From Escherichia phage JSE, in the sequence record EU863408: 64,000 bases of DNA, one strand, 5' to 3'. The notes below the pieces were generated by a model, which had not been told where the DNA came from, did not search any database, and saw only the letters and a program-made list of their open reading frames with translations. Of this stretch, positions 3,441-26,950 are shown piece after piece. Each line of letters opens with the position of its first letter. Position 1 is the stretch's first letter. The translations under genes and the position numbers were made by a program.

Positions 3441-4943
3441 ATGCAAGATATTAAAATTCACTTTCTGAACTATTCCCATGTTCAAATTGAATGTAGCGAT
3501 TCAATTTTATTAGAAATGCGAGATTATTTTAGTTTTGAAGTCGAGGGAGCGCGGTTTCAAAAACGAGTAAAATACGGAGGCTGGGATGGGCGTATTCGTC
3601 TTTTAGATTACAACGGAAAGCTGCCAATCGGCCTAACTAAAACCGTGGGAATCTTCGCTAAAAATATGGGCTATAGTGTATGGGTAGATCCTCGCTTATT
3701 CGAAAAAGAACAAGTTACAGAAGAAGAAATTACAAAATGGTGTAATGCCTTAGAATTATATTCCGGTGCTAACAGGATCACCCCGCATTGGTATCAATCA
3801 AAGGCTGTCTTTGAAGGTATCCATCATAAACGCCGTATGTTAGTTTTGCCTACGTCCGCTGGTAAATCTGCGATTGCTTGTATGTTGTCTCGCTGGTACT
3901 TAGAGAACTACGAAGGGAAAGTGCTGATCATCGTTCCTACCACGTCGCTAGTGCTGCAAATGCGTGATGACTTTGTTGATTATCGCCAGTTTCCTTATGA
4001 AGCAATTCATACTATCATGAGCGGTACTAGTAAACACGTAGGTGATCGCCTGATCGTTGTTAGTACGTGGCAATCTGCATGTAAACAACCTCGTGAGTGG
4101 TTCCAGCAATTTGGGATGGTTATTGTTGACGAATGTCACAAAGCCACTGCTAAAAACCTGCTAAACATCGTTACTGATATGGATCATTGCCAGTTTAAGA
4201 TCGGCATGACTGGTTCCCCTCGTGACGGGAAAGCTAACATGATGCAGTATGTCGGGCTTTTCGGTGATATTTCTAAGATCGTGAGTATTGACCGCCTGAT
4301 GGAAGAAGGGCAGGTGACAAAACTGAAAATTAACTGTCTTTTCCTTCGTTATACCGATGAGGAATGTAGCGCGGTTAAGGGGCGAGAATATGCGGAAGAG
4401 ATCAAGTATATTACATCTAACCCACGACGAAATAAGTTTGCTTGTAATTTGGCGCTAAAACTCGCTAAGAAGGGCGAAAACGTATTCCTGATGTTCCGCA
4501 ACACTAAGCACGGAAAACTTATGTATGACGCGTTACAGAAGGTACACGACAAGGTTTATTATATTGACGGTGGAGTTAAGACAGAAGAACGAGACGAGTT
4601 CAAAAAATTAGCGGAAGGGGAAACAGGGATCATTTGTGTTGCGTCTTATGGTGTATTCTCTACTGGTGTTTCAATTAAGAATTTGCATCATGTTATTTTC
4701 GGTCATCCAGTGAAGGAATCAACTATCGTTCGTCAGAGTATCGGTCGTGCATTGCGTAAACATGGTTCTAAGGATATTGCAACGGTCTGGGATCTTATCG
4801 ATCATTTGGCGGTTAAGACAAAGAGCAAGAATGCTAAGAAACAGTTTAGCCACCTTAATTATGCTCTTAAACATGCGCTTGAAAGAATAAAAATTTACAA
4901 CACCGATCGATTCGAATATGTCACGAAAACAATCGAGATCTAA
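3441..4943 (+). CDS. uvsW: UvsW DNA/RNA helicase
   Basis: Strong similarity to T4 UvsW along the whole length (DIKIHF.., GRIRLLDYN, LPTSAGKS, DECH, late YVGLFG and HLNY regions); ATG at 3441 with GAGTGAGG RBS (track ORF starts at GTG 3426). Confidence 0.9.
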   Translation: MQDIKIHFLNYSHVQIECSDSILLEMRDYFSFEVEGARFQKRVKYGGWDGRIRLLDYNGKLPIGLTKTVGIFAKNMGYSVWVDPRLFEKEQVTEEEITKWCNALELYSGANRITPHWYQSKAVFEGIHHKRRMLVLPTSAGKSAIACMLSRWYLENYEGKVLIIVPTTSLVLQMRDDFVDYRQFPYEAIHTIMSGTSKHVGDRLIVVSTWQSACKQPREWFQQFGMVIVDECHKATAKNLLNIVTDMDHCQFKIGMTGSPRDGKANMMQYVGLFGDISKIVSIDRLMEEGQVTKLKINCLFLRYTDEECSAVKGREYAEEIKYITSNPRRNKFACNLALKLAKKGENVFLMFRNTKHGKLMYDALQKVHDKVYYIDGGVKTEERDEFKKLAEGETGIICVASYGVFSTGVSIKNLHHVIFGHPVKESTIVRQSIGRALRKHGSKDIATVWDLIDHLAVKTKSKNAKKQFSHLNYALKHALERIKIYNTDRFEYVTKTIEI

Positions 4944-4949
4944 TAAATA

Positions 4950-4973
4950 GGGGCTTTAATGCCCCTTTATTCT
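4950..4973 (+). terminator. rho-independent terminator-like hairpin after uvsW
   Basis: GGGGC-loop-GCCCC followed by T-rich tract. Confidence 0.5.
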
Positions 4974-4986
4974 ACGGAGATTAAAA

Positions 4987-5223
4987 ATGATTAGCTTTAA
5001 ACGTTTTTTGGTTGAGGCCGCTATTGACGGTTTCATGAGTAAGATTTATTCTTGTAATACTATCGAGGGATTAAATGAACTTGAGGCATATTATGAGAAG
5101 CGCAAGAAAGAAACAGAATTGAAACCTGCTGATGACATTTCGATCCGTGATGCTATCGCTGGACGCCGTAAGCAACTGGAAGCGGACAACGAGCCAGAAG
5201 AGGAGCCGGAAGAGGATTTTTAA
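4987..5223 (+). CDS. uvsW.1: UvsW.1-like small acidic protein
   Basis: 78 aa; resembles T4 UvsW.1 (FLxEA.IDxFM..I.SC.T.EGL.ELEAYY...ETELK). Confidence 0.7.
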   Translation: MISFKRFLVEAAIDGFMSKIYSCNTIEGLNELEAYYEKRKKETELKPADDISIRDAIAGRRKQLEADNEPEEEPEEDF

Positions 5224-5484: not shown

Positions 5485-5892
5485 TTAGCGACCAGATTCC
5501 AGCATACGCAATTCTATAGCATTCTTGATCGCAAATCCACGAGATTTAACGATATCAAGTGCGCGACCAGCAAAATCCATTACCATCTGGTAATATGCAA
5601 TTTTCGTATCAAGCGGTAAGATCTCGTCGTCTGCTGCCATGACAACTTTCAATTCTGATTTCTCATATTCAGCACGACACCAGTCATCACTACGGTTAGT
5701 GTAAAAGTCAAGACGATTTTTCATAGCCTTTTTCTTTTTAGCCTCAAGAGCAATCGTCTCTCTTTTCGCCTCGCTGTAAATCCTTAACCACTTTGAGTAT
5801 ACTACCGGATTATTCAGCGCCTCCCATTGCAACTTAGTCGCATCGATCTTCATGTCAGCTTCTAATTGTTCTTTCAAATCGTTTAGGTCCAT
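5485..5892 (-). CDS. uvsY: UvsY recombination mediator
   Basis: 135 aa; similar to T4 UvsY (LQWEA.NN..YSKWL, KSRGFAIK). Confidence 0.85.
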   Translation of the reverse strand: MDLNDLKEQLEADMKIDATKLQWEALNNPVVYSKWLRIYSEAKRETIALEAKKKKAMKNRLDFYTNRSDDWCRAEYEKSELKVVMAADDEILPLDTKIAYYQMVMDFAGRALDIVKSRGFAIKNAIELRMLESGR

Positions 5893-5939
5893 AATATCCC
5901 CTTATTCACACTAAGACCTATATCATATCACACACAAAA

Positions 5940-6338
5940 TCACTTTGCAAGTCTTATGCGTAGTTGTTCAAGATCATCTGGGTTATCTATTACTGAAAAG
6001 TAGATTGATACTATGATTGAGTTATCGTCGTACTGCGGAGTTACTTCTACTGTCAGGTTTCGGACCCGTGGTTCATAGTTTCGGATCGCCTCATTGATGT
6101 TTTTTGATAAGGTATCCACTGTCAGTGGGTTCATGTTCTCAAACAGTGATTTATTGAGATCGCATCCAAACAGTGGATCAAATGGACGAGATCCCTTGCG
6201 AGTAGTCACGATCAGTAGAATAGAATCTTTAACCGCTTTAATCCCTATGTTCTTTTTAACGTCGTTATTCCACGATCTGGATATATTGAGATCCAAATCA
6301 GTATACATCTGATTAATAGTTGCCATGTTATACCTCAA
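5940..6338 (-). CDS. 25: baseplate wedge subunit gp25
   Basis: 132 aa; TTRKGSRPFDP.FGCDL, RNYEPR, FSVIDNPDD match T4 gp25. Confidence 0.9.
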   Translation of the reverse strand: MRYNMATINQMYTDLDLNISRSWNNDVKKNIGIKAVKDSILLIVTTRKGSRPFDPLFGCDLNKSLFENMNPLTVDTLSKNINEAIRNYEPRVRNLTVEVTPQYDDNSIIVSIYFSVIDNPDDLEQLRIRLAK

Positions 6339-13168: not shown

Positions 13169-13648
13169 TGCTAAATCATTGCAATATTTTAGTGCCTTAG
13201 TTTGAAATTCTGCGCTGTTAAGTTCTTCATAACGGTCATAATCACCGTTTAATGCTGCCTTTCTTGCTTCTTGCTCTATCTGCATGTCAGACATGATAAT
13301 ACAGCGATCCCGTGCTTTCATCTTCTCAAGTTGTATAGACTCTTCTTTCTGTTTGCGCAATTCTTCTTGACGCTTCTTTTCTTCTCGTGCTTTCTCTTCC
13401 CGCGCTTCTTTGATTGCATCCTTGAACATCTGCGTTTGTGGTGCTAAACCAACTTTAACGCGATCCACGTCTCGACGTTCCATTTTAGAAATAAAGCATG
13501 ATTCGATCTGATCATCACTTGCATATGCTGCTTTACATTCACGAAGCAAGAAAACCGGATCTGATTTAGCATTCATCATAGCTTCCATGTTAGCACAACC
13601 AGTAAGAATGAATGCAGCCGCAAGACCAATCAGTTTAATCATTTTCAT
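13163..13648 (-). CDS. predicted lipoprotein (161 aa)
   Basis: Signal peptide with lipobox LTGC; Lys/Glu-rich coiled region. Confidence 0.6.
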   Translation of the reverse strand: MKMIKLIGLAAAFILTGCANMEAMMNAKSDPVFLLRECKAAYASDDQIESCFISKMERRDVDRVKVGLAPQTQMFKDAIKEAREEKAREEKKRQEELRKQKEESIQLEKMKARDRCIIMSDMQIEQEARKAALNGDYDRYEELNSAEFQTKALKYCNDLAK

Positions 13649-14469
13649 TTAGTCACCTCACCGAAAATTGTAAATTGTCTACGATTCTCATCGCCGAAAG
13701 ATTCTACTACGTCGTTTACCTTGACGCAAGTCCCGCGCGGTAAAATTACTTCACATTCGCAAGGGTTCCATGCAATGGACCCAACAACAAAACCTTTATG
13801 ATCTTTTACATCAATCACCCATGATACATTACAAGAATGTTGCATCTTTCCGGTCATTGATTCATATCGATTCTCACAATAAAGGCTAGTGCTGTTTGAT
13901 AGCCATCCTCCAAAGATGATCGGTGTCATGCTGGTCGATACAAAGTTTTTAAAGGTAAACTCCTTATCTTCAATGATGCGCTCTATTGTCTGAATGTCAA
14001 GATGTTGACCGCGATAAAGAGTACCGTTTAACTTTTCGGTTTTATCCATGACGCAATCCATCAAATCAACAATCTCTGATATCTCATCGGTCATGTCTTC
14101 TTCGCCTAAGAGAGCACCATTTACCCATTCGTATTGTTCAGACACATAATCACAGATTGCAGTATATTCTTCTGGGGTTATGTTGTTATGTTTGTAATGT
14201 TTGAATACATTATCTCCAAAGTCTTCGGAGTGTACTTCATACATCACATTAATGATTTTCTTGACAAATCCATAATCTTGTGTCTCACGCTCAAGGAAGC
14301 GGATAACCTTCACATAATCATCAAAGTTAATCTGATCGCTGATCATCTCAGTGATCATGTAACCATTAATCCCCTCAATGTCATATGTTTCGATGTAATT
14401 ATCCATACGTTCCATCATTGATTCGCGTGATTCTTCCGAAAGACGAAAATCCTGTAATTGTTTGAACAT
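13645..14469 (-). CDS. Alt-like ADP-ribosyltransferase paralog (274 aa)
   Basis: Shares with the Alt C-terminal domain the ART motifs LYRG, FKNFVSTS, IFGGW and ECEVILPRG. Confidence 0.7.
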   Translation of the reverse strand: MFKQLQDFRLSEESRESMMERMDNYIETYDIEGINGYMITEMISDQINFDDYVKVIRFLERETQDYGFVKKIINVMYEVHSEDFGDNVFKHYKHNNITPEEYTAICDYVSEQYEWVNGALLGEEDMTDEISEIVDLMDCVMDKTEKLNGTLYRGQHLDIQTIERIIEDKEFTFKNFVSTSMTPIIFGGWLSNSTSLYCENRYESMTGKMQHSCNVSWVIDVKDHKGFVVGSIAWNPCECEVILPRGTCVKVNDVVESFGDENRRQFTIFGEVTK

Positions 14470-14490
14470 TTTAAACCTCCCATATAACAG

Positions 14491-14522
14491 AAAACGGGGC
14501 TAGTATAAAACTAGTCCCCGTT
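14491..14522 (-). terminator. terminator-like hairpin between alt and the alt-like gene
   Basis: ACGGGGACTAG-loop-CTAGCCCCGT followed by a T-rich tract on the minus strand. Confidence 0.45.
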
Positions 14523-14547
14523 TGAGTCAACCATTATTTCTTAAAAA

Positions 14548-16599
14548 TTACATTTTAAATTTATCTGGCATTGCGTCTACAGATACCAGATCAGCGATAA
14601 GCTGACGTAGAGTTGCCTTATCTGCTTTCTTACGTTCGGTTTTAGCTTCGCTAATGAAGCTGGAGAAAGACAGGTCAGAAGCAGGTTTAACAACACCTTC
14701 ACGGATGAATGCATCACCGTCTGCGATCATCTCGCCAGATTCTTGTAATGCTGCCAGTTCATTTTTGTTCATAATATGTGCCTCAATGTAATAAGTTTCT
14801 TGTGAATCCGTCGATGCCGTAGCACGAGTTACCGTATCAAAGGATAACACAACACCGCGAGGAAGTAAAATCTCGCATTCTTTGTAAGCAAATGCTTTGT
14901 TACCTACTGGCAATACAGGGATGTTTTCCGCGCCAGCAATGGAGAAAGCAACATTAGCGCCACCTTCACCGCGAGAGCCAGCCATAGAATCAACACCAGC
15001 AACGGCACTAGCCACGTTTGCATTCCAGCCGCCAAAAATGTTAGGTGCAAGGGAAGTGCTCACATAGTTTTTAAAGTAAAACGCTTTTTGCTTACGTGCA
15101 GTTTCCCACATTTGCGACCGGAAGTCCATACCACGATACAGAATAGTACCCGGATCAAGTTTAACGCCATAGTTGGAGAAGGCATTATCCAGTGCATCGC
15201 ACATCTTGACCAATTCTTCTGGATCTGAGATTCCTTCAAACTCTTCCAGCTTACGGTCGGTTAGGAAGTTGTTCATATTGATGTATGCTGCATCGGCATA
15301 TTCGCTCAACACAAAACCTTCCGCGCCTGGCAGATCAAGATCAATATTTGCCATCATTTCACCCATGTTGCTAGCAATTGCTTCAAACATACCGGAAGCA
15401 ACATTACGTAGGGCATCGGTTTTAATCTGGGTGATATTACTACGCAGCATTTCAGCTTTTACATCTGCTGGCATAGACTGGTCTACTCGATCCATTGCCA
15501 GTGCGGTGATCTTGTTTTCGAATACTTCCTCGCTCATGATTTCTTTTAAGCGTTTGATTGATGCTGCGATAACTTCCGCAGACAACGGATCATATTGATC
15601 CTGAACTTTTACCAGTTCGCTTACTGCGTATTTTGCATCGGCTTCGCTTTCAAAAATAGTACGCATGAAACCATAGCGAGTGATAATATCACTTGTCCAG
15701 TCATTCAGAGAACGGGCGGTTGAACGTTCTAAGGCTTGACGATCAATCAGAGTATTAAACTGTTTCTTAGGTTCTGCTTCGGTGATATCTTCTTCCGGTT
15801 TAAGATTAATTTTTTCTGGATGATTCACATAGTCGCTGTTATAGGTCGCTTGAGTTTTCAGCATTTCTTCTTTAGTCAAACGAGATTTAGCCGCTACGCG
15901 TTGTTCCGCTTCCGCGTTTCGTTCTTCTTCTGACACAAGACTAGCCGCATACGCTTCATCTTTAGTCAGAGATTCACCAGTAGCCTTAGATACCCAGCGA
16001 TCACCTAAATCACTTTCTACTTTAGTGAACAAGGAATCATCAAGTTTAATCCCTTTAATCTTATCAATCGCCATACCGCGACGCTTGACAACAACTAAAG
16101 CGATCTTTTTGCTGGTCATTACTTCCTGCTGGAATACTTCAAACTTCGGTGTACGACGCACCAAACGCTCTATAACGCGCTTAACCAGTTCGGTCTTACC
16201 TTTCATGCGGGATACGTTAAAACGGAACATAACAGCGTCTAGTTGCGCTTTACGGGCTGTTTCCATAACCACATCAAAAGCACTTGACATAACTGCAATC
16301 GGGTTATCGCCTAGACCATTTTTAAGCTGTACAATACGACCGCTTTTGTTCATTTCGCACAGTACAACATGTGCGGTCTTGTCACCCATACGAATGATTT
16401 TAGGTGTTTTGTTGGTGAAGTTACAAAGACGGACAATCACATCTTTATCGCGTGTCTGTACTGCAAAAAGCTGTTTAGGATTCTGCTTAGGCTTTAAGCA
16501 CTGTACCGGGGCAATACTACCAAAGTTTTCTTCCTCTTCCGTCAACAGCCATTTCTCGAAAGATTCAATCATTAGATCGTCGATTTCTAAGTTAAACAT
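14548..16599 (-). CDS. alt: Alt ADP-ribosyltransferase (packaged RNA polymerase-modifying enzyme)
   Basis: 683 aa; C-terminal ART motifs YRG, YVSTS, ECEILLPRG; size and position as T4 alt. Confidence 0.85.
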   Translation of the reverse strand: MFNLEIDDLMIESFEKWLLTEEEENFGSIAPVQCLKPKQNPKQLFAVQTRDKDVIVRLCNFTNKTPKIIRMGDKTAHVVLCEMNKSGRIVQLKNGLGDNPIAVMSSAFDVVMETARKAQLDAVMFRFNVSRMKGKTELVKRVIERLVRRTPKFEVFQQEVMTSKKIALVVVKRRGMAIDKIKGIKLDDSLFTKVESDLGDRWVSKATGESLTKDEAYAASLVSEEERNAEAEQRVAAKSRLTKEEMLKTQATYNSDYVNHPEKINLKPEEDITEAEPKKQFNTLIDRQALERSTARSLNDWTSDIITRYGFMRTIFESEADAKYAVSELVKVQDQYDPLSAEVIAASIKRLKEIMSEEVFENKITALAMDRVDQSMPADVKAEMLRSNITQIKTDALRNVASGMFEAIASNMGEMMANIDLDLPGAEGFVLSEYADAAYINMNNFLTDRKLEEFEGISDPEELVKMCDALDNAFSNYGVKLDPGTILYRGMDFRSQMWETARKQKAFYFKNYVSTSLAPNIFGGWNANVASAVAGVDSMAGSRGEGGANVAFSIAGAENIPVLPVGNKAFAYKECEILLPRGVVLSFDTVTRATASTDSQETYYIEAHIMNKNELAALQESGEMIADGDAFIREGVVKPASDLSFSSFISEAKTERKKADKATLRQLIADLVSVDAMPDKFKM

Positions 16600-16644
16600 T
16601 TTATATCCTCTAGTTGATAACCTATAAACCTATATTTATGAAAA

Positions 16645-16668
16645 CGGGGCTTAACGCCCCTTTTTATT
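16645..16668. terminator. terminator-like hairpin
   Basis: GGGGC-TTAAC-GCCCC followed by TTTTTATT. Confidence 0.45.
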
Positions 16669-16879
16669 ATAATGCACCATCGAGCAATTGCTCTAAGGTG
16701 TATCCTGAATAGTCTTTTTCAATCAGGATATATTTTCCTACTCGTTTAATACAACCGCGCATTTCAACGTATTCTGCGTAGTTGATGGTACGAGTTGTTC
16801 CATCTTCCAGTAATGCAGTACCGATTTCGTTAATGCGGTCATAAGTTACGTCGGTAATGATGATTTCGATGTTAGCCAT
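16667..16879 (-). CDS. hypothetical protein (70 aa)
   Basis: ORF with GGAGTA RBS and PeSL-type promoter upstream. Confidence 0.45.
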   Translation of the reverse strand: MANIEIIITDVTYDRINEIGTALLEDGTTRTINYAEYVEMRGCIKRVGKYILIEKDYSGYTLEQLLDGAL

Positions 16880-16912
16880 TTGATACTCCTTAGTAGTTCG
16901 TTTCTGTATGGG

Positions 16913-16944
16913 TGTATTATGATATACACCCTCTGTTATGTCAA
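16913..16944 (-). promoter_or_regulatory. PeSL-type early promoter (variant)
   Basis: TTGACA, 17-nt spacer, CATAAT; inverted repeat GGGTGTAT..ATACACCC. Confidence 0.45.
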
Positions 16945-16950
16945 CAACTT

Positions 16951-17130
16951 TTAGAACATTTTTGAAATTAATTCTGCTTTGATTTCGCAGAGAACATCTA
17001 AAGATTTCTCGTCACCCGCTTTTGCTGCTTCTGCTTGCATTTTTGAAATGGCTTCAATCTCAGTGCAATTATAAGCCGCTTGAACTTTAGCGATTGCGAT
17101 GATTGCCGATTCGATGGTTAAGTGTTTCAT
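16951..17130 (-). CDS. small hypothetical protein (59 aa)
   Basis: Hand-translated ORF MKHLTIESAII..; GGAGAATCAAA RBS; not in the ORF track. Confidence 0.35.
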   Translation of the reverse strand: MKHLTIESAIIAIAKVQAAYNCTEIEAISKMQAEAAKAGDEKSLDVLCEIKAELISKMF

Positions 17131-17162
17131 GTTTGATTCTCCTTTCGTTTCGGTATGTGTGT

Positions 17163-17191
17163 ATTATAGGGGATCGATGATCCCCTGTCAA
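17163..17191 (-). promoter_or_regulatory. PeSL-type early promoter with palindromic spacer
   Basis: TTGACA, spacer GGGGATCATCGATCCCC, TATAAT. Confidence 0.6.
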
Positions 17192-17199
17192 CAACTTTT

Positions 17200-17718
17200 T
17201 TAGTTATTTTTTAATTGCTCATCTTGCAATAGGGCAATCACATGCTGGCGATGTTCTTCCGATTGAGGCACACCGAAAAAGTTTGTTTTGTAGAAATACT
17301 CTAATCGGTCTTCTCGTGTGCTCTCTTCCATCATGATCGCGGGTAGTCCGAGATTTCGGAAACGTCGCTTTTCTGCTGGCGTAAAATCACTGTAATACAA
17401 CATAGAATCATCATTACCAGCAATGCTAAACTCATCCTTCATAAAGGAGAATATTGCGTTTAAACGCTGTTTACCGTCCACGATTTCGATCTCATAGCGA
17501 GAGCCATCATCAATCTTAGCCATTGCGATAGCACCAACCGGAAAATCATTAATCAGGTTTTCGATAAACATACGTTTGTTTTCTGTGTCCCATACTAAAG
17601 GACGCTGATAATCTGGGTTCATGTTGATATAGCCATCTTCTAACCATGCATCATAAACAGAGATGACAAAGTTTTTAGTATTGGTATAGTAACGGCGTTT
17701 AGGCGTTAAACGGTTCAT
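17200..17718 (-). CDS. DUF262 (ParB-like NTPase) domain protein
   Basis: Motifs PDYQRPLVW, FPVG, IVDGKQRL typical of DUF262; start taken at MNRLT with GGAGAC RBS. Confidence 0.6.
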   Translation of the reverse strand: MNRLTPKRRYYTNTKNFVISVYDAWLEDGYINMNPDYQRPLVWDTENKRMFIENLINDFPVGAIAMAKIDDGSRYEIEIVDGKQRLNAIFSFMKDEFSIAGNDDSMLYYSDFTPAEKRRFRNLGLPAIMMEESTREDRLEYFYKTNFFGVPQSEEHRQHVIALLQDEQLKNN

Positions 17719-17719
17719 G

Positions 17720-18049
17720 TTATAGTCTCCTGAATGGATCATCACGTAAATCAATATCTTTTAAGAACTCATCCCATGAATGCCGGATATTGTTCTTAAT
17801 TCTCCAGATAAGCGCAGGGATTGAACGCTCTCCCATCTGGAAGTAAGGATCATATGATCCGTATGCCCAATATGCTACTACAATTCCACAATCAGCGCAA
17901 TAGTATTCTATTTCACTTGCTGGCGACCAAAGTCCATCAATATGATCGGTGATCTTGCTTTCGATGTTATGGCTATGACAATCAGGGCAACGGATGCAAT
18001 GACCTTGTTTATCGTAATTTGACGTTAGCGAATACTTAAACAATCTCAT
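17720..18049 (-). CDS. zinc-ribbon protein (109 aa)
   Basis: CxxC..H and CxxC pairs (CIRCPDCHSH, CADCG); translationally coupled to neighbours. Confidence 0.5.
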   Translation of the reverse strand: MRLFKYSLTSNYDKQGHCIRCPDCHSHNIESKITDHIDGLWSPASEIEYYCADCGIVVAYWAYGSYDPYFQMGERSIPALIWRIKNNIRHSWDEFLKDIDLRDDPFRRL

Positions 18050-18765
18050 TATAGATCCTTATTTGCTTCAAATACTGCCTTTGCGAATCCTCGCGGGGTA
18101 AGTGACCTTATAGTCTTTGTTTTCGTTCCTTTCCCGCCTAGCTTAGAATGCTGTTTACTGTACCCTTTATTAATCTGCAACGGTTTCTTTTCTGGCATTA
18201 TAAAGCCTTGTCCGGACCATAAGCAAGTCTTTTTCGGGTACATATCACGGGCGGCAATATACTCAGGAAACGTAGGATGCTTATCATCTTCCGGCAAATA
18301 ACCGCCATATTCCCACGGATGGAACATATAATCAGGCTTACGCCACATGCTAGAGATAACGCTTACAGGATTCTCTATCATGTAGGGAACTCCTAGCCAT
18401 TCACCCAAATAAGCGGTTATTTTAGCTGCCCTTACATCATGAACTTGAATCAATGGTCCTTGCTCTCGTTTCTTTCGTTCAAAGTGTGCAGCGCCACTAA
18501 CAGCTAAATTGGTGCACGGTGGGAATGCAAAGATAATATCCGGTTTCCCCCATTCAAGGTCCATTGCTCTTTCCAGCCAGTTCAAATCAATCCAGGTGTT
18601 TACATAGGTAATGTTTGGATGTTCAAATCTGGTATTATACTTTTTGTATGTACCGTGGTCGGCGTCATCCGCATTAAAGCAGACTACCTTATGACCTGCT
18701 TTAGCCCATTCTAGCCCCATTATCCCCGATCCGTCAAAGTTGCAGAATATTAATTTTTGTTTCAC
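18049..18765 (-). CDS. compact C5-cytosine methyltransferase-like protein (238 aa)
   Basis: Motif I-like FCNFDGSG, motif IV-like FPPC..SG, motif VI-like ENP; too short for a canonical target-recognition domain. Confidence 0.45.
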   Translation of the reverse strand: MKQKLIFCNFDGSGIMGLEWAKAGHKVVCFNADDADHGTYKKYNTRFEHPNITYVNTWIDLNWLERAMDLEWGKPDIIFAFPPCTNLAVSGAAHFERKKREQGPLIQVHDVRAAKITAYLGEWLGVPYMIENPVSVISSMWRKPDYMFHPWEYGGYLPEDDKHPTFPEYIAARDMYPKKTCLWSGQGFIMPEKKPLQINKGYSKQHSKLGGKGTKTKTIRSLTPRGFAKAVFEANKDL

Positions 18766-19013
18766 GCTGCCCCCATTGGTTTGATAGTAACAGAATCTAA
18801 AAGACCTTTGTTAGCCAGTTCGCGGCAAGTTTTCAGATCCGCAACTTCCCAGCCAGCCGCAATCAGGTTATCAATGAGGCTGTTAGCAACTTCTTCGCTC
18901 ATGAAAGAGCACTGTTTGCCGATGGTGTAGCGTACACGCTGTAATTTCAGTTTACGGAAGCCTTTAACGTTCAGGTCTTTAGCGATTTTCTTTGCGGTTT
19001 CGATGTTAGCCAT
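18762..19013 (-). CDS. hypothetical protein (83 aa), first gene of the DUF262 operon
   Basis: ORF; ATGA overlap with downstream gene; GGAGAATCAAA RBS. Confidence 0.45.
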   Translation of the reverse strand: MANIETAKKIAKDLNVKGFRKLKLQRVRYTIGKQCSFMSEEVANSLIDNLIAAGWEVADLKTCRELANKGLLDSVTIKPMGAA

Positions 19014-19053
19014 TGTTTGATTCTCCTAAGTGGTATCTCGTCTTGATGGTTGT

Positions 19054-19082
19054 ATTGTAGGGGAGTTATCCTCCCCTGTCAA
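19054..19082 (-). promoter_or_regulatory. PeSL-type early promoter
   Basis: TTGACA, palindromic spacer GGGGAGGATAACTCCCC, TACAAT. Confidence 0.55.
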
Positions 19083-19096
19083 CACTTTTTATAAAA

Positions 19097-19264
19097 TTAT
19101 TTGTTAATTTCTGGTGCGTTGCTAGGATAGTAACCTTCTTTAACTCCGAGATATTTCGCAACCATCCCTACAATCTTCTGTGCTACTACAATGTCAAATT
19201 TCAGATAATCTTCGCCGTGGGTTTCAATGATATATGCTTCACATGCTGCTTTAGTCTCGAACAT
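19097..19264 (-). CDS. small protein (55 aa), copy 1 of a duplicated gene
   Basis: MFETKAACEAYII..; about 85 percent nt identity to 22576-22743; not in the ORF track. Confidence 0.45.
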   Translation of the reverse strand: MFETKAACEAYIIETHGEDYLKFDIVVAQKIVGMVAKYLGVKEGYYPSNAPEINK

Positions 19265-19297
19265 TTTGATTCTCCTATTTCGTTTCGGTATGTGTGT

Positions 19298-19326
19298 ATT
19301 ATAGGGGATCGGTGATCCCCTGTCAA
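19298..19326 (-). promoter_or_regulatory. PeSL-type early promoter
   Basis: TTGACA, spacer GGGGATCACCGATCCCC, TATAAT. Confidence 0.6.
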
Positions 19327-19332
19327 CAACTT

Positions 19333-19644
19333 TTAGCGACGGCGACGATGTTTTTTGCGAGTTGCCTTTTTGTATGCTTTATATGCCTTTTTACCGTTTT
19401 TATATGCTTTTTTGGTATATGATTGATTTTTCTTATTGTTTTTGTATGTTTCCCGGTCAGTATTAATTTCGTTACATTCCACGAAACGGTGTCGATGTTC
19501 TTGTGGTATGATCAAACATTTATCATAATTAACCATTTCGTTTTTCGTTGTTTGTGGTTTCTTTGGTGTGTTGTTTGCACTAACAGACCCAGCAAAGAGA
19601 ATGAGTATAGCGGTCATTAACGCAAACATTGTTTTCTTAATCAT
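19333..19644 (-). CDS. secreted basic protein (103 aa)
   Basis: N-terminal signal peptide (..AGSVSA/NN); Lys/Arg-rich C-terminus. Confidence 0.5.
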   Translation of the reverse strand: MIKKTMFALMTAILILFAGSVSANNTPKKPQTTKNEMVNYDKCLIIPQEHRHRFVECNEINTDRETYKNNKKNQSYTKKAYKNGKKAYKAYKKATRKKHRRRR

Positions 19645-19702
19645 AATATTCTCCTTTAGTTTCTGCGGGAGTGTGAATATAACACTCCCTTAATATTTTG
19701 TA

Positions 19703-19984
19703 TTATTCGTGATTAGTTTCGATGTTGTGCATTTTGCACCAGTTCAGCCAATCGCCCAGATCTTGATAGTTAATGCTTTTATCTGCTGCCATCGTTTTTG
19801 TCTTGATACCCATATGTGCGTTATGAGTAAGCATTTTTACAGTGAACTCGATTTTATCGCCTTTAGCTTTAACATCAACCAGTTTGGTCCACTGGCTACC
19901 AGCACCGCGAATGTTCATACCAACGATGTTTCCGATGTATGCTTCTTTGTTTTTCAGGATTTCGGTTGCTTTGATGAATTTCAT
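19703..19984 (-). CDS. hypothetical protein (93 aa)
   Basis: ORF with RBS and upstream PeSL. Confidence 0.45.
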   Translation of the reverse strand: MKFIKATEILKNKEAYIGNIVGMNIRGAGSQWTKLVDVKAKGDKIEFTVKMLTHNAHMGIKTKTMAADKSINYQDLGDWLNWCKMHNIETNHE

Positions 19985-20017
19985 TTTTGATTCTCCAGTT
20001 CGTTTCGGTATGGGTGT

Positions 20018-20046
20018 ATTATGCTATGTTCTTACTTTGGTGTCAA
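20018..20046 (-). promoter_or_regulatory. sigma70-like early promoter
   Basis: TTGACA, 17 nt, CATAAT. Confidence 0.5.
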
Positions 20047-20055
20047 CAACTTTTT

Positions 20056-20325
20056 TTAGATATTTTCAGAAATAAATTTTAAAACTTGACGTAAATGTTT
20101 CTCATCTTTGATGGTAGCCGGAAGTTCTTCTTTTACTTCCTGTGCAAGATAGATATTTCCGTTCCAAGTGAAAGATCCGTCTTCGTTTACTCGATAGCTG
20201 AACATCCACTCGCAATCATTTTCGATTTCATATACACACAGAAGGGTGTAATCGTTAAAGCTATTGATTTCAAGGTCGAAGCCGTGACGTTTTGCAAAGT
20301 TGGTAGTGGTTTTAGTCAGTACCAT
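20056..20325 (-). CDS. hypothetical protein (89 aa)
   Basis: ORF with GGAGAATCAAA RBS. Confidence 0.45.
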   Translation of the reverse strand: MVLTKTTTNFAKRHGFDLEINSFNDYTLLCVYEIENDCEWMFSYRVNEDGSFTWNGNIYLAQEVKEELPATIKDEKHLRQVLKFISENI

Positions 20326-20364
20326 TGTTTGATTCTCCTAAGTGGTATCTCGTCTTGATGGGTG

Positions 20365-20393
20365 TATTATGCTATACACAGGATCTGGTGTCA
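20365..20393 (-). promoter_or_regulatory. sigma70-like early promoter
   Basis: TTGACA, 17 nt, CATAAT. Confidence 0.5.
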
Positions 20394-20416
20394 ATGCCTT
20401 TTTTAAAATTTTATGC

Positions 20417-20442
20417 AATAAAAAAGCCGACGCTAAGGTCGG
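20417..20442 (-). terminator. rho-independent terminator (minus strand)
   Basis: GCCGAC-loop-GTCGGC hairpin followed by T6 on the minus strand. Confidence 0.55.
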
Positions 20443-20454
20443 CTAATAAAATCA

Positions 20455-20759
20455 TTTAGACAAATAATCATTCAGTGCAATCCGGTCGGCGTATGCTGGT
20501 GTTACGTCAATCGCAATCACTTTAACGCGTGCTTTCTTGCGACCTGGGTTTTCTCGTAACCAGTGCTCATGACCGTGAACATTTTATACTGCGATGCTTC
20601 TTCGAAAGTACGGATCGGACAAGGGTAATCAGCGTAAAGGATCTCTAGGTCTTCGGTGATGTAAAAATATACATCATAATTACTGTTCTCTAGTTTAAGC
20701 AGAGACTTTCGGAACATTGGGAGATTTTCGCGGGTAAATTCAAAGATATTATCTTTCAT
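20455..20759 (-). pseudogene. HxHW-family small protein, frame broken at a T4 homopolymer (about 20581-20584)
   Basis: N-terminal 80-aa ORF; family C-terminus VHGHEHW..VKVIAIDVTPAYADRIA continues in another frame. Confidence 0.35.
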
Positions 20760-20783
20760 AGTATTATCCTCAATAGTTGGATG

Positions 20784-20806
20784 AAAAGGGGGGCTTAATG
20801 CCCCGT
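20784..20806 (-). terminator. terminator-like hairpin
   Basis: GGGGCATTAAGCCCC hairpin with a short T tract. Confidence 0.3.
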
Positions 20807-20809
20807 ATA

Positions 20810-21097
20810 TTAAAACAGTCCTTCCTGTACACCGTAGTAGAGTTCATCGCTGATAATTTCATTAATGCGACGGTGTGCATATTCCTGATTTGCGAAGTTG
20901 TCAGCAAGTTCTACTTTAGTTTCGCCATCATGAGTCCATTTAGTGATAACTTTACCATCGGCAAATTTGAAGTTGAACTCTTTAGCTACCGCATCGCGTA
21001 CCAGACGTGCAAACTTATTGTTGCGGATTGCATTGTCGGTTTCGTGTGCAGCGTGAGCGAATTTGTTAACTTTCAGAGTGATAGTAATGTATGCCAT
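20810..21097 (-). CDS. hypothetical protein (95 aa), paralog of 24231-24542
   Basis: Shared motif NAI...R.VR.A.AKEFN.K. Confidence 0.45.
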   Translation of the reverse strand: MAYITITLKVNKFAHAAHETDNAIRNNKFARLVRDAVAKEFNFKFADGKVITKWTHDGETKVELADNFANQEYAHRRINEIISDELYYGVQEGLF

Positions 21098-21143
21098 AAT
21101 TTGATTCTCCTAGTTAGAAAGTGTATCTCGTTTCGACGGGTGT

Positions 21144-21172
21144 ATTATGCTATACACCCGATCCATTGTCAA
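21144..21172 (-). promoter_or_regulatory. PeSL-type early promoter
   Basis: TTGACA, 17 nt, CATAAT; palindrome GGGTGTATAGCATAATACACCC. Confidence 0.5.
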
Positions 21173-21504
21173 CGCCTTTTTATAAAATAATTTTCGATAT
21201 CTTTATGATGTTTTTCTCGTGCTTGGTCTGCCTCGGCTGGCGATACGTTGGAAGCGATAATCTTCACTACTGTTGCACCTTTTTCGGTGTCCGACACCCA
21301 ATGATTATGGAAACCGCTATTATTAAACACTTGATAAGAAAATGATTTAATGTTAGGGAAATTATAAGTGTAATAACGTACCCTTAATTCTGAATCTACG
21401 TATAGATAGATCACCGCACCTAGATAGACCGTCTCACTCGTTCCGTCAACTAACAGTAGAGTATTTCGCAATTCTTCTAAATTGTCTTTTGTAAGAAAAA
21501 TCAT
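21169..21504 (-). CDS. HxHW-family small protein (111 aa)
   Basis: C-terminal FHNHWV..VVKIIASNVSPAEADQARE. Confidence 0.5.
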   Translation of the reverse strand: MIFLTKDNLEELRNTLLLVDGTSETVYLGAVIYLYVDSELRVRYYTYNFPNIKSFSYQVFNNSGFHNHWVSDTEKGATVVKIIASNVSPAEADQAREKHHKDIENYFIKRR

Positions 21505-21518
21505 AGTATAATCCTCAA

Positions 21519-21854
21519 TTAAACCAAATTAACTTTGGTGTTGTGGTGGTTTTCTCGTGCGTCGTCCGCTTCTTCCGGTGTCACGTTACGAGCGACGACA
21601 ATAACACTTGCTGCCTCTCCGTGATGATAGATCTCTACCCAATGGTTATGATTTGCGAATCCGTGTTTTATTGCGTAAGCGAACGGCTTAGACGTCCAGT
21701 AGTAACTATAATATCGTACATTTAGATCGCTATCAATGTACAAATATGTGCTGTCGTTTACATTGCCACTAACAACAAAAACAAGACAATTGCGAAGATC
21801 TGACAATATTTTGTCTGTCAATTTTATAATGTGACTGTTCATAATTAACACCAC
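21519..21854 (-). CDS. HxHW-family small protein (111 aa), tandem paralog
   Basis: C-terminal NHNHWV..VIVVARNVTPEEADDARE; VRYY.Y motif shared with 21169-21504. Confidence 0.5.
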   Translation of the reverse strand: MVLIMNSHIIKLTDKILSDLRNCLVFVVSGNVNDSTYLYIDSDLNVRYYSYYWTSKPFAYAIKHGFANHNHWVEIYHHGEAASVIVVARNVTPEEADDARENHHNTKVNLV

Positions 21855-22060
21855 TCAAGAGTTTTTGAAAACACATCTATCCATTGTTGAGTATATGCGG
21901 TTTCTTTCCATGACACAATACCAGTCGAATAATGGTTTTTGTTTCCAGAAAAGGACGGGCATTTTGATGCATCTTCCATCATCTTTTCGGCGAACTCTGG
22001 TTCGTATACCCGCAGAATCTGTTGATATGCTTTGTATTCTTTAAATTTGCTCATAATCAT
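21845..22060 (-). CDS. hypothetical protein (71 aa)
   Basis: ORF only. Confidence 0.35.
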   Translation of the reverse strand: MIMSKFKEYKAYQQILRVYEPEFAEKMMEDASKCPSFSGNKNHYSTGIVSWKETAYTQQWIDVFSKTLEWC

Positions 22061-24981: not shown

Positions 24982-25455
24982 TTACTCCTTATTTTCGCGC
25001 TCGTACTTTTCGAAATAAAATTCTACTGGCTGGTCATGAATTGACAGCAAGCCAAAGCGTTTAGCCGCTCGCAATCCCATATTGCGCTGAATATACTTCT
25101 GGAAGTTCTCGCGTATACACTTACGCCAGTATTCTAAGCCCATACAGCTTTTATAAAGATTGCATTGTACACACGCCGGATTCATGTTATCAAGTATATC
25201 ATGTTCCGGTTTATGCATTCCTACGACCTTATACTTCCACGATCCATCATCATTACGGGCAATTCGTCCATTTTCATCATAGACTACCTTTGAGCGTCGC
25301 AATACTGGTTTGATGTGGTCTGCGTGCCAGCGATCCCCTAGTTCCTCGCCACAATAGGCACAACGTCCACCATATTTCATTTTCAGGATCTGGCGTTGCT
25401 CTTTCTTTGACAATTTTTTAGGTTTAGGGGCTTTCGCCCCTTCATTATCACACAT
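24982..25455 (-). CDS. HNH endonuclease
   Basis: HNH/zinc-finger motifs CAYCGE, WHADHIKP, NMNPACVQCN. Confidence 0.7.
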   Translation of the reverse strand: MCDNEGAKAPKPKKLSKKEQRQILKMKYGGRCAYCGEELGDRWHADHIKPVLRRSKVVYDENGRIARNDDGSWKYKVVGMHKPEHDILDNMNPACVQCNLYKSCMGLEYWRKCIRENFQKYIQRNMGLRAAKRFGLLSIHDQPVEFYFEKYERENKE

Positions 25456-26950
25456 CGAATACCTCTTTTACTGTATTTGCAGTGGTCTTGTCGTAGCGAA
25501 TACGTTTGATGATTGGGAGAAATAAAGAGAACTCCGGTTCATCTTCTTTACGTGATTTGCTGCGGATATACCCGTTGCATGTCATCTCAATGACTTTTCC
25601 AATCAGGTTATGACGGTCAGCCCATAACATTTCTCGGTCGAGTTCATTTCGACGATCGAACGGAATTACACGTTCAGTACCATCATCACCTTTTTCGGTT
25701 GTAGTGTCGGTTAATCCCGATCCGGTGTTAGTCATCATTCGTCCGCACGCACTACGGACAGTAAAACCGCCTACCTTATTGGGGTCTTTACTATGCGGAT
25801 ATACATCAACAATTTCCGCGTCGAAGTCAATCACTTCTTTAAATTTAACCTGATCTTTACTACGGCGATCTTCAAATACACCATGTAAATTTTTAAGGAT
25901 AATACCTTCTAAGCCCATGTTTACATAGCGATGATATACTTCGCGAGCTTCATCTATATTGTTAACTACAGTGTTTTCGATTATCTGAACACGAGGATCG
26001 TTAAGTTCTTCAACAATCTGTTTTAGTTCTTCGAATCGATCTTTATATTGCTTCGTTGCTTTCTCGTTTCCGTAATACACATCACGGTCGATAACATCCC
26101 AGACAGTGTAAACAATACATTGGGCTTCTTCTTTTGGAATAGTTCCTTTCAGTGATTTGTTGAGGATACCATTTACGGTCTGACGATCTGCAACAACGGA
26201 TTCTTTTACTGCTTCCGCTACTGGCGTTAATGGCATTTCCTCTTCTTCAAATATCCATGACAGAGTACCATCATAAACGCTTTCAACGAAGTTCTGCGCT
26301 GGTGTTTGCGAAAGGGTAGGCATATATACCAATTCCCCATCTAGAACAATTCCACGGCCTCGTAGACGCTCTAAAACAGCAAACAAATCATCCAGCCCCT
26401 GATAGGTATTACCTGAACGGGTATAGATTGCTAATGTTTCCCCGTCAATATCAGCCATCCCACGAGCGCCATCGCTTTTAAGTTGTGCATACGCCGGATA
26501 CTTGATATTAGCAATAGTCTTATCAGAACATGACGATGCAAGGTGACACGGTTGCTGGGGGATCAGTTTCTTCCATACCTTGTTTGCAGTGGTAGCTGAA
26601 CAGCCGCATTCCAGATCACGATTCAGGACCATCATTGCAACTTTAGCATCATCCTCTGACAAGCAAGTCAGAGTATCGGTAACTAGCTGTAATGCTGCAT
26701 TACCAGTTACTTGACGCGTGGCAAGTTTATTTTTAAAGACCTGTAATGCACCGGATAAAGACAATACAGACGAATAACGCGATGGTTTATCGTATTTCTT
26801 TACGCCAAACGTAACCTGTTTGCAATATGCCAGATAAAAACATTCTTTCAGTGTTTCATTGCTTGCAGATTCTTTCAGGATCTTTTCTTTCAGCGATGTT
26901 TTGTCTGTTGCTGCAAGCTGGTTAATGATATTAAGAATTGACATTTTCAC
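25448..26950 (-). CDS. 30: ATP-dependent DNA ligase gp30
   Basis: 500 aa; KxDG adenylation motif (QLKSDGARG); size and position as T4 ligase. Confidence 0.9.
   Translation of the reverse strand: MKMSILNIINQLAATDKTSLKEKILKESASNETLKECFYLAYCKQVTFGVKKYDKPSRYSSVLSLSGALQVFKNKLATRQVTGNAALQLVTDTLTCLSEDDAKVAMMVLNRDLECGCSATTANKVWKKLIPQQPCHLASSCSDKTIANIKYPAYAQLKSDGARGMADIDGETLAIYTRSGNTYQGLDDLFAVLERLRGRGIVLDGELVYMPTLSQTPAQNFVESVYDGTLSWIFEEEEMPLTPVAEAVKESVVADRQTVNGILNKSLKGTIPKEEAQCIVYTVWDVIDRDVYYGNEKATKQYKDRFEELKQIVEELNDPRVQIIENTVVNNIDEAREVYHRYVNMGLEGIILKNLHGVFEDRRSKDQVKFKEVIDFDAEIVDVYPHSKDPNKVGGFTVRSACGRMMTNTGSGLTDTTTEKGDDGTERVIPFDRRNELDREMLWADRHNLIGKVIEMTCNGYIRSKSRKEDEPEFSLFLPIIKRIRYDKTTANTVKEVFDV

Follow-up and report, generated by a model that had tools for sequence, protein, structure and literature searches.

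A PeSL-bounded gene block in Escherichia phage JSE encoding a predicted compact Dcm-type methyltransferase and a stand-alone DUF262 protein

In the RB49-like phages RB49 and phi1, PeSL (promoter early stem-loop) elements have been shown by experiment to be strong early promoters and terminators that shuffle non-essential open reading frames (ORFs) (PMC2839356). We analyze a 64,000-nucleotide stretch of a related genome, that of Escherichia phage JSE (record EU863408; hereafter, the whole stretch is called the window), in which four minus-strand genes at 17200-19013 encode an 83-amino-acid (aa) protein, a compact protein with the motifs of a C5-cytosine DNA methyltransferase, a zinc-ribbon protein and a DUF262 protein. 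An earlier reading of the letters (the original prediction) had proposed that the last three form a module for self-modification, anti-restriction or exclusion of other phages. We conclude that the block is a PeSL-bounded string of independently acquired accessory genes, not a conserved multi-protein system. We consider it likely that these genes make up an early unit of independent functions, in which an orphan, compact Dcm-type enzyme would methylate the phage's own DNA, probably at CCWGG, as a form of anti-restriction.

A homologue of the methyltransferase has been described in K42, a KarlJaspers-like phage of the Drexlerviridae, whose Dcm triggers the retron Ec86/Eco1 (bioRxiv 10.1101/2023.08.16.553469). 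Mutations by which K42 escapes the retron disrupt its 711-bp dcm gene or map just upstream of it. Expression of the gene is toxic together with Ec86 and leads to more 5-methylcytosine (5mC) on multicopy single-stranded DNA (msDNA), as measured by LC-MS (liquid chromatography coupled to mass spectrometry), and a C82A/E128A/K175A/K176A mutant is inactive (bioRxiv 10.1101/2023.08.16.553469). For the fourth gene of the block, the nearest points of comparison are the DUF262 proteins GmrSD, BrxU, SspE and NsnA; the motifs of the ParB-DUF262 domain, QRxxxW, DGxQR and FxxxN, were defined in the work on Menshen (PMC12065111).

Gene layout and PeSL promoters

The region 16900-19300 is 98-99% identical to that of ~55 RB49-like (Krischvirus) phages, including vB_EcoM_011D4, RB49, phi1, GEC-3S and TB34. 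Four minus-strand ORFs of 83, 238, 109 and 172 aa, whose start and stop codons overlap or abut, lie between two consensus PeSL promoters; the ORFs and their junctions are exactly as originally predicted. The features of the locus and its flanks are as follows.

19082-19054, minus strand: PeSL promoter upstream of the four-gene block (TTGACA-N17-TACAAT, 11/12 consensus matches; GGGGA/TCCCC stem-loop)
19013..18762, minus strand: 83-aa ORF, first gene of the block (phrog_14908)
18765..18049, minus strand: 238-aa compact Dcm-type C5-cytosine DNA methyltransferase, as assigned from phrog_757 and motifs
18049..17720, minus strand: 109-aa zinc-ribbon ORF (phrog_2993), in a TAATG overlap with the preceding gene
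17718..17200, minus strand: 172-aa stand-alone ParB-DUF262 ORF (Pfam, PADLOC, motifs)
17191-17163, minus strand: next PeSL, closing the cassette, ahead of a 59-aa gene (TTGACA-N17-TATAAT, 12/12; GGGGATC/GATCCCC stem-loop)
14548-16599: alt, RNA polymerase ADP-ribosyltransferase (phrog_802)
25448-26950: ATP-dependent DNA ligase gp30 (phrog_114)

As alt and the DNA ligase gene flank the locus, its earlier placement at the alt/gene 30 junction is correct. The 238-aa ORF starts with a GTG within GTGA, overlapping the TGA stop upstream, and the 172-aa ORF starts one base past the upstream TAA stop, with GGAG as its Shine-Dalgarno sequence. Both promoters hold a G/C hairpin between -35 and -10, with fold z-scores of -4.9 for 19082-19054, the promoter already picked out in the original prediction, and -3.9 for 17191-17163; no terminator-like site was found between the two. 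Across the window, TTGACA-N17-TAYAATAC is found 12 times, each time on the minus strand, versus 0.13 occurrences expected by chance. An Rfam scan of 14000-22000 returned no match. Because the promoter fits the consensus and PeSL elements have been assayed in the published work, host sigma-70 RNA polymerase would be expected to transcribe the block from this promoter early after infection.

The block has the make-up that defines a PeSL cassette, namely consensus sigma-70 promoters with a stem-loop flanking ORFs in the hyperplastic region from alt to ligase. It resembles the cassettes of RB49 and phi1 (Arbiol et al. 2010, PMC2839356) in its sigma-70 promoters with an internal G/C stem-loop, in its place in the hyperplastic region and in the gain or loss of ORFs between close relatives. 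It differs from them in two respects: the cassette holds four coupled genes rather than a single ORFan, and an 81-aa ORF that comes and goes within it is flanked by a 16-bp repeat at gene junctions rather than by PeSLs. This ORF, which matches no Pfam family, stands between the 83-aa gene and the methyltransferase gene in most Krischvirus members (TB34 5863-6108) and is absent in JSE, G2248 and E26; the alignment shows a 16-bp overlap of its flanks (18749-18764), and hence a short direct repeat delimits the ORF at coupled gene junctions. The phage kaaroe has an extra 59-aa ORF (3818-3997) between the zinc-ribbon and DUF262 genes.

Two further observations concern the surroundings of the block. 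Just downstream lie two adjacent ADP-ribosyltransferase genes, one of 274 aa (13645-14469, phrog_15144) and the 683-aa Alt (14548-16599). On the other side, a 376-bp segment (19327-19702) holds a 103-aa minus-strand ORF (19644..19333), located between a PeSL promoter at 19326-19298 and a terminator-like hairpin at 19667-19689; its N-terminus resembles a signal peptide and its C-terminus is very basic. Searched by blastn, the segment gave no match among 50,697 phage records or 5,426 E. coli genomes; the ORF matches neither phages by tblastn nor any PHROG, and is absent from TB34 at the corresponding position. It would seem to be a JSE-specific, PeSL-flanked orphan insertion.

The compact methyltransferase and its probable target

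The 238-aa protein matches phrog_757 ("DNA methyltransferase") over residues 1-237 with an E-value of 2.8e-90, and the C5-methyltransferase motifs for which it was first singled out are present and invariant in 36 homologues. Motif I is FDGSG at residues 10-14, with F10, G12, S13 and G14 invariant in the 36 homologues and a looser F-D-x-[ST]-G across the wider family (57 representatives at 33-52% identity). Motif IV, which holds the catalytic Cys, is FPPC at residues 81-84; P82, P83 and C84 are invariant in the 36 homologues and C84 also in the 57 representatives. Motif VI is ENP at residues 131-133, with E131, N132 and P133 invariant in the closer set and E131 and P133 in the wider one. The protein also carries a K178/K179 pair. 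An AlphaFold2 (AF2) model is confident (predicted local distance difference test, pLDDT, 88.9); Foldseek matched it to DNMT1 and DNMT2, and solved C5 methyltransferases are the closest fold. The link to these solved enzymes is carried by the motifs, the fold and the published homologue.

That homologue could be placed through Escherichia phage damhaus, whose gp42 (711 bp, 236 aa, with C82, E128, K175 and K176) has the gene length and residue numbers of K42 Dcm. Gp42 is 56% identical to the 238-aa protein over its full length (E-value 9e-92), and C84, E131 and K178/K179 align; this places the JSE protein in a family for which there is published evidence of methyltransferase activity. It shares with K42 Dcm its compactness (238 vs 236 aa), the conserved catalytic Cys, Glu and KK pair, and its status as an orphan phage gene without a cognate nuclease. 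The setting is different: the homologue is a siphovirus gene, surrounded by small ORFs and upstream of a helicase gene, whereas the gene described here lies in a PeSL cassette of a T4-like myovirus. Moreover, 5mC activity and retron triggering are reported for the K42 enzyme, whereas for the Krischvirus enzyme both are predictions.

The family is large. A word-indexed search returned 5,795 proteins at E ≤ 0.001; the family comprises 1,152 clusters at 50% identity, nearly all of 200-260 aa, and members occur in 1,520 phage records, T1-like, Dhillonvirus, Webervirus, T5-like, rV5-like and Seunavirus phages among them. E. coli Dcm, at 472 aa, is much longer. DNMT3, whose target-recognition domain is very small, is itself a C5 methyltransferase, and therefore compactness is no argument against activity. 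The earlier statement that the protein lacks room for a normal target-recognition domain was overstated, given that its size is the norm across the 1,152 clusters and that for a homologue of the same size there is published evidence of 5mC formation. Residues ~150-224, which would be the target-recognition domain by position, are short and highly conserved across the family (36 homologues, 57 representatives), a pattern that suggests one specificity shared by its members. Unlike the classical PF00145 enzymes (E. coli Dcm, M.HhaI, the DNMT3A/3B catalytic domain), the JSE protein has a sub-threshold Pfam score and a putative target-recognition region that is short and conserved across its family instead of variable. 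As a side observation, the "Dcm" coding sequence of kaaroe (4329-5000) is annotated 45 bp short, at 672 bp, by which motif I would be lost; the GTG start used in JSE and TB34 fits the family alignment better.

By its conserved residues, the enzyme would use S-adenosylmethionine (SAM), the PPC cysteine C84 and the ENP glutamate E131 and, judging from the homologue, would mark a short specific site in replicating phage DNA. Progeny would then be shielded from EcoRII-type restriction irrespective of the dcm status of the previous host. Self-methylation would carry a cost in exposure to methylation-sensing defences, e.g., retron Ec86 (Eco1); Dazbog and BrxU, both DUF262-based, are other systems with a response to 5mC. 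HpaII and NheI both cleave RB49 DNA (PMC4041780), which excludes bulk or CCGG methylation. Methylation is probably site-specific rather than bulk, with CCWGG as the probable target.

Several observations weigh against self-methylation at CCWGG, or against the assignment of the enzyme itself. The 238-aa protein reaches PF00145 only over residues 10-100, with an E-value of 0.01 and 15.7 bits against a cut-off of 22 bits, and just one of the 57 family members reaches this family at E ≤ 0.01; neither phmmer nor two profile searches of Protein Data Bank (PDB) sequences brought up a C5 methyltransferase. For the K42 enzyme, specificity for CCWGG was deduced from the name of E. coli Dcm and from msDNA mutants in a dcm-plus host, not from a methylome (bioRxiv 10.1101/2023.08.16.553469). 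Virion DNA of TB34, which encodes a counterpart of the protein at 97.5% amino-acid identity, was found to be without detectable modified nucleoside by high-performance liquid chromatography-mass spectrometry (HPLC-MS) (PMC13390438). Finally, CCWGG is ~three-fold under-represented in the window (21 observed vs 63-72 expected, observed/expected 0.29) and ranks among its most depleted words, which is odd for a self-protecting phage, and the target site could be a different one.

The TB34 result is compatible with site-specific methylation, as full methylation of the 21 CCWGG sites per 64-kb window would amount to only ~0.16% of cytosines, below easy HPLC detection. As for the scarcity of CCWGG, a better fit is that a T4-like phage with ordinary cytosine avoids restriction sites in general, since EcoRI, HaeIII, Eco57I-type and further restriction sites are likewise avoided in the window and the products of deamination are not enriched. 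Deamination of 5mC as the source of the depletion is not supported by the counts of CTWGG and CCWAG, neither of which is enriched (CTAGG 34 vs 27 expected, CTTGG 12 vs 57). Summed over both strands of the window, the observed and expected numbers of other sites are 0 vs 33 for GAATTC, 2 vs 56 for CTGAAG, 4 vs 48 for TCCGGA, 62 vs 154 for GGCC and 14 vs 55 for CCCGG/CCGGG.

The same data bear on whether the 238-aa protein is a plain DNA 5mC methyltransferase at all. It might instead transfer another group (e.g., carboxymethyl), have RNA as its substrate, as DNMT2 does, or be an inactive or a regulatory protein. The unmodified nucleosides of TB34 and the PF00145 score below the gathering threshold would suit such a protein, as would the 5-hydroxymethylcytosine (5hmC) and glucosyl-mC reported for the sister phage SAP, which are unexplained and leave Krischvirus modification poorly understood. 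We regard this as very improbable, however: the K42-type family member at 56% identity to the JSE protein has LC-MS evidence for 5mC, the catalytic Cys and Glu are invariant, and the 5mC expected from CCWGG methylation is too small a share of cytosines to be readily detected. Nor does SAP help this alternative. SAP has been reported to contain 5hmC and glucosyl-mC, whereas TB34, 99.96% identical to it, is unmodified (PMC13390438). In our alignment of the two phages there are 0 mismatches across the operon and 4 indels, all outside it; the operon was thus rejected as the cause of the difference in modification, and the 238-aa gene cannot explain it.

The two genomes do differ nearby. Just 3' of the DUF262 gene, SAP (1732-1879) and TB34 (4233-4313) are distinguished by an 81-bp tandem duplication holding a PeSL, and upstream by four one-base indels, of which three fall within T runs. 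The published analysis of single-nucleotide polymorphisms between SAP and TB34 may not have listed the duplication, which is probably not the explanation of the puzzle.

The block genes inside and outside Krischvirus

Co-occurrence was assessed in the ±8-kb flanks of IMG/VR loci and in sampled lists of search results. At 78 of 80 IMG/VR methyltransferase loci, tblastn placed none of the other three block genes within 8 kb, the two exceptions being Krischvirus contigs. Reciprocally, 53 of 55 short-DUF262 loci were without a methyltransferase of the 238-aa family (tblastn and a hidden Markov model (HMM) of the methyltransferase), and the two exceptions were again Krischvirus. Outside this genus, the methyltransferase, zinc ribbon and DUF262 gene thus co-occur at 0/78 methyltransferase loci and 0/53 DUF262 loci. 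RB43, 9g and a P22-like phage have one block gene each and no partners (tblastn of all four proteins), and no RB43-like or Slopekvirus genome of 170-180 kb was among 60 evenly spaced matches from the methyltransferase search. The three genes also differ in host and taxon distribution (1,520 phage records for the methyltransferase, 304 for DUF262, 91 for the zinc ribbon). No Pfam family recurs beside the short DUF262 gene among 132 ORFs, three per side at 22 non-redundant loci, where N6_N4_Mtase was matched by 2 of the 132.

The solo loci led us to reject a conserved three-gene module. Within Krischvirus, the methyltransferase, zinc ribbon and DUF262 gene are together in all 55 records (at least 90-95% identity per gene); since these records are close relatives, joint presence says little about function. 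One consideration against full independence is that this 55/55 linkage, along with translational coupling, leaves room for functional coupling specific to the lineage.

Functional coupling could take the form of an integrated system in which the zinc ribbon would supply target recognition and the DUF262 protein would load on or read modified DNA, for self/non-self discrimination, anti-restriction or exclusion. The tight translational coupling behind a single promoter and the constant company of the three genes in close Krischvirus records are what such a system would produce; in BrxU and Dazbog, DUF262 domains do detect DNA modifications, 5mC among them, some Menshen (NsnA) loci adjoin methylases, and an N6/N4 methylase occurs in 2 of the 22 short-DUF262 neighbourhoods. 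We nevertheless consider cooperation unlikely. The solo loci described above, those of 9g, RB43 and P22-like phages included, speak against it, and K42-type Dcm, when expressed by itself in E. coli, reportedly raises msDNA 5mC and is toxic with retron Ec86. In addition, ORFs are inserted between block genes in some Krischvirus phages, and an effector domain is absent throughout the block (Pfam, PADLOC). Under the preferred reading of independent accessory genes, the four genes would be linked through common descent in Krischvirus and PeSL-mediated shuffling, with no obligate joint mechanism. Self-modification and anti-restriction, two of the roles originally proposed for the module, are likely for the methyltransferase; cooperation between its parts did not hold up. 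As the RB49 counterpart is already annotated as a DNA methyltransferase in RefSeq and evidence on the function of the family is published, the assignment is not new, and a new three-protein system finds no support.

The stand-alone DUF262 protein and the smaller block proteins

The 172-aa protein matches Pfam GmrSD_N/DUF262 (PF03235) with an E-value of 4.8e-20 and 72.9 bits (cut-off 33.2 bits). The HMM searches suggested alongside the original prediction thus turned out well for this protein and, through phrog_757, for the methyltransferase, with PF00145 as the shortfall. In PADLOC, the protein matches NsnA (1.9e-20, profile positions 48-188 of 385) and PD-T4-2_A (4.9e-12). Its YQRPLVW, DGKQR and FYKTN are the three ParB-DUF262 motifs, invariant in 9 homologues, as is GVPQSEEH, a family-specific motif that follows motif III. 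The protein has the ParB/sulfiredoxin fold, so the structural check came out as expected for both proteins. It is a minimal yet complete ParB-DUF262 domain, predicted to bind nucleoside triphosphates and free of any effector or DNA-binding partner domain. The absence of the DUF1524 half had been recognized from the start, and searches of Pfam, PADLOC and NCBIfam found no DUF1524 or His-Me finger nuclease in this protein, in the other three block proteins or in recurrent neighbours. An NsnA-type ParBDB domain and a downstream ATPase or effector gene are absent as well, the next features being a PeSL and the 59-aa ORF. The 172-aa protein thus stands apart from GmrSD, BrxU, SspE and NsnA: it has no DUF1524 nuclease, ParBDB domain, partner ATPase or effector, it is phage-encoded and presumably early, and it carries GVPQSEEH after motif III.

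DUF262 homologues of about this length were found in 304 phage records, RB43-like and Slopekvirus phages among them, and in P22-like phages the short DUF262 gene adjoins the anti-RecBCD genes abc1 and abc2. That the gene sits in early operons of unrelated phages speaks for host takeover or anti-defence, and our best guess is that the 172-aa protein has an early role of this kind, e.g., competing with or poisoning host DUF262 sensors of modified DNA. A decoy for DUF262-based sensors is an attractive idea, and a possibility.

A related proposal ties the two genes together after all, with the solo DUF262 protein recruited beside Dcm in Krischvirus to offset the cost of self-methylation, blinding BrxU/GmrSD, Dazbog and Menshen. 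The protein would bind nucleoside triphosphate (NTP) and 5mC-marked phage DNA, or the host sensors themselves. The thematic link and strict linkage within one genus only are what speaks for this, and we hold it to be a long shot; if true, it would be the first phage anti-defence protein made from a defence sensor's own domain.

An exclusion factor was also weighed, in which the solo DUF262 protein would act as a split GmrS-like subunit, recognizing the hydroxymethylcytosine (hmC) or glucosyl-hmC of co-infecting T-even DNA and recruiting a nuclease of host or phage. Split systems (GmrS/GmrD, TvgA/TvgB) exist, the PADLOC matches to NsnA and PD-T4-2_A are of the right kind, and Krischvirus DNA, having ordinary cytosine, would be immune. 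Neither DUF1524 nor any other nuclease turned up within the block or recurrently beside the short DUF262 gene; the 172-aa protein is without the DNA-binding domain that accompanies DUF262 in known sensors, and the P22-like context beside abc1 and abc2 suggests host takeover, not defence. We give this explanation very little credence.

The two smaller proteins say less about function. The 109-aa protein has the zinc ribbon (CxxCxxC ... CxxC) ascribed to it in the original prediction and belongs to phrog_2993, with weak Pfam matches. DHIDG is conserved between the two Cys pairs. Its family is common to 9g-like (Nonagvirus) and Proteus phages at ~40-44% identity, in 91 phage records; a large-database search returned its own cluster alone. 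A hidden HNH nuclease was considered but is not supported, for want of an HMM match and of a conserved downstream Asn or His. The 83-aa protein belongs to phrog_14908 and has only weak, sub-threshold Pfam matches. NCBIfam has no family for the methyltransferase, DUF262 or 83-aa proteins, and gave two weak sub-threshold matches for the zinc ribbon. A weak PADLOC match of the 83-aa protein to the defence reverse transcriptase RT_UG35 (2.6e-5, C-terminal positions 722-785 of 938) suggests that the two possibly share a small domain.

For the phages themselves, these results bear first on the RB49-like group, whose members are routine T4-like controls with "unmodified cytosine" and yet carry a predicted early Dcm-type methyltransferase that may place a little 5mC in their DNA. 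Even a small amount could affect experiments on restriction, retron Eco1 or type IV restriction. More broadly, PF00145 thresholds miss the compact phage Dcm family despite its very large size (1,520 phage records), and unrelated phages repeatedly carry short stand-alone DUF262 proteins in their early accessory regions.

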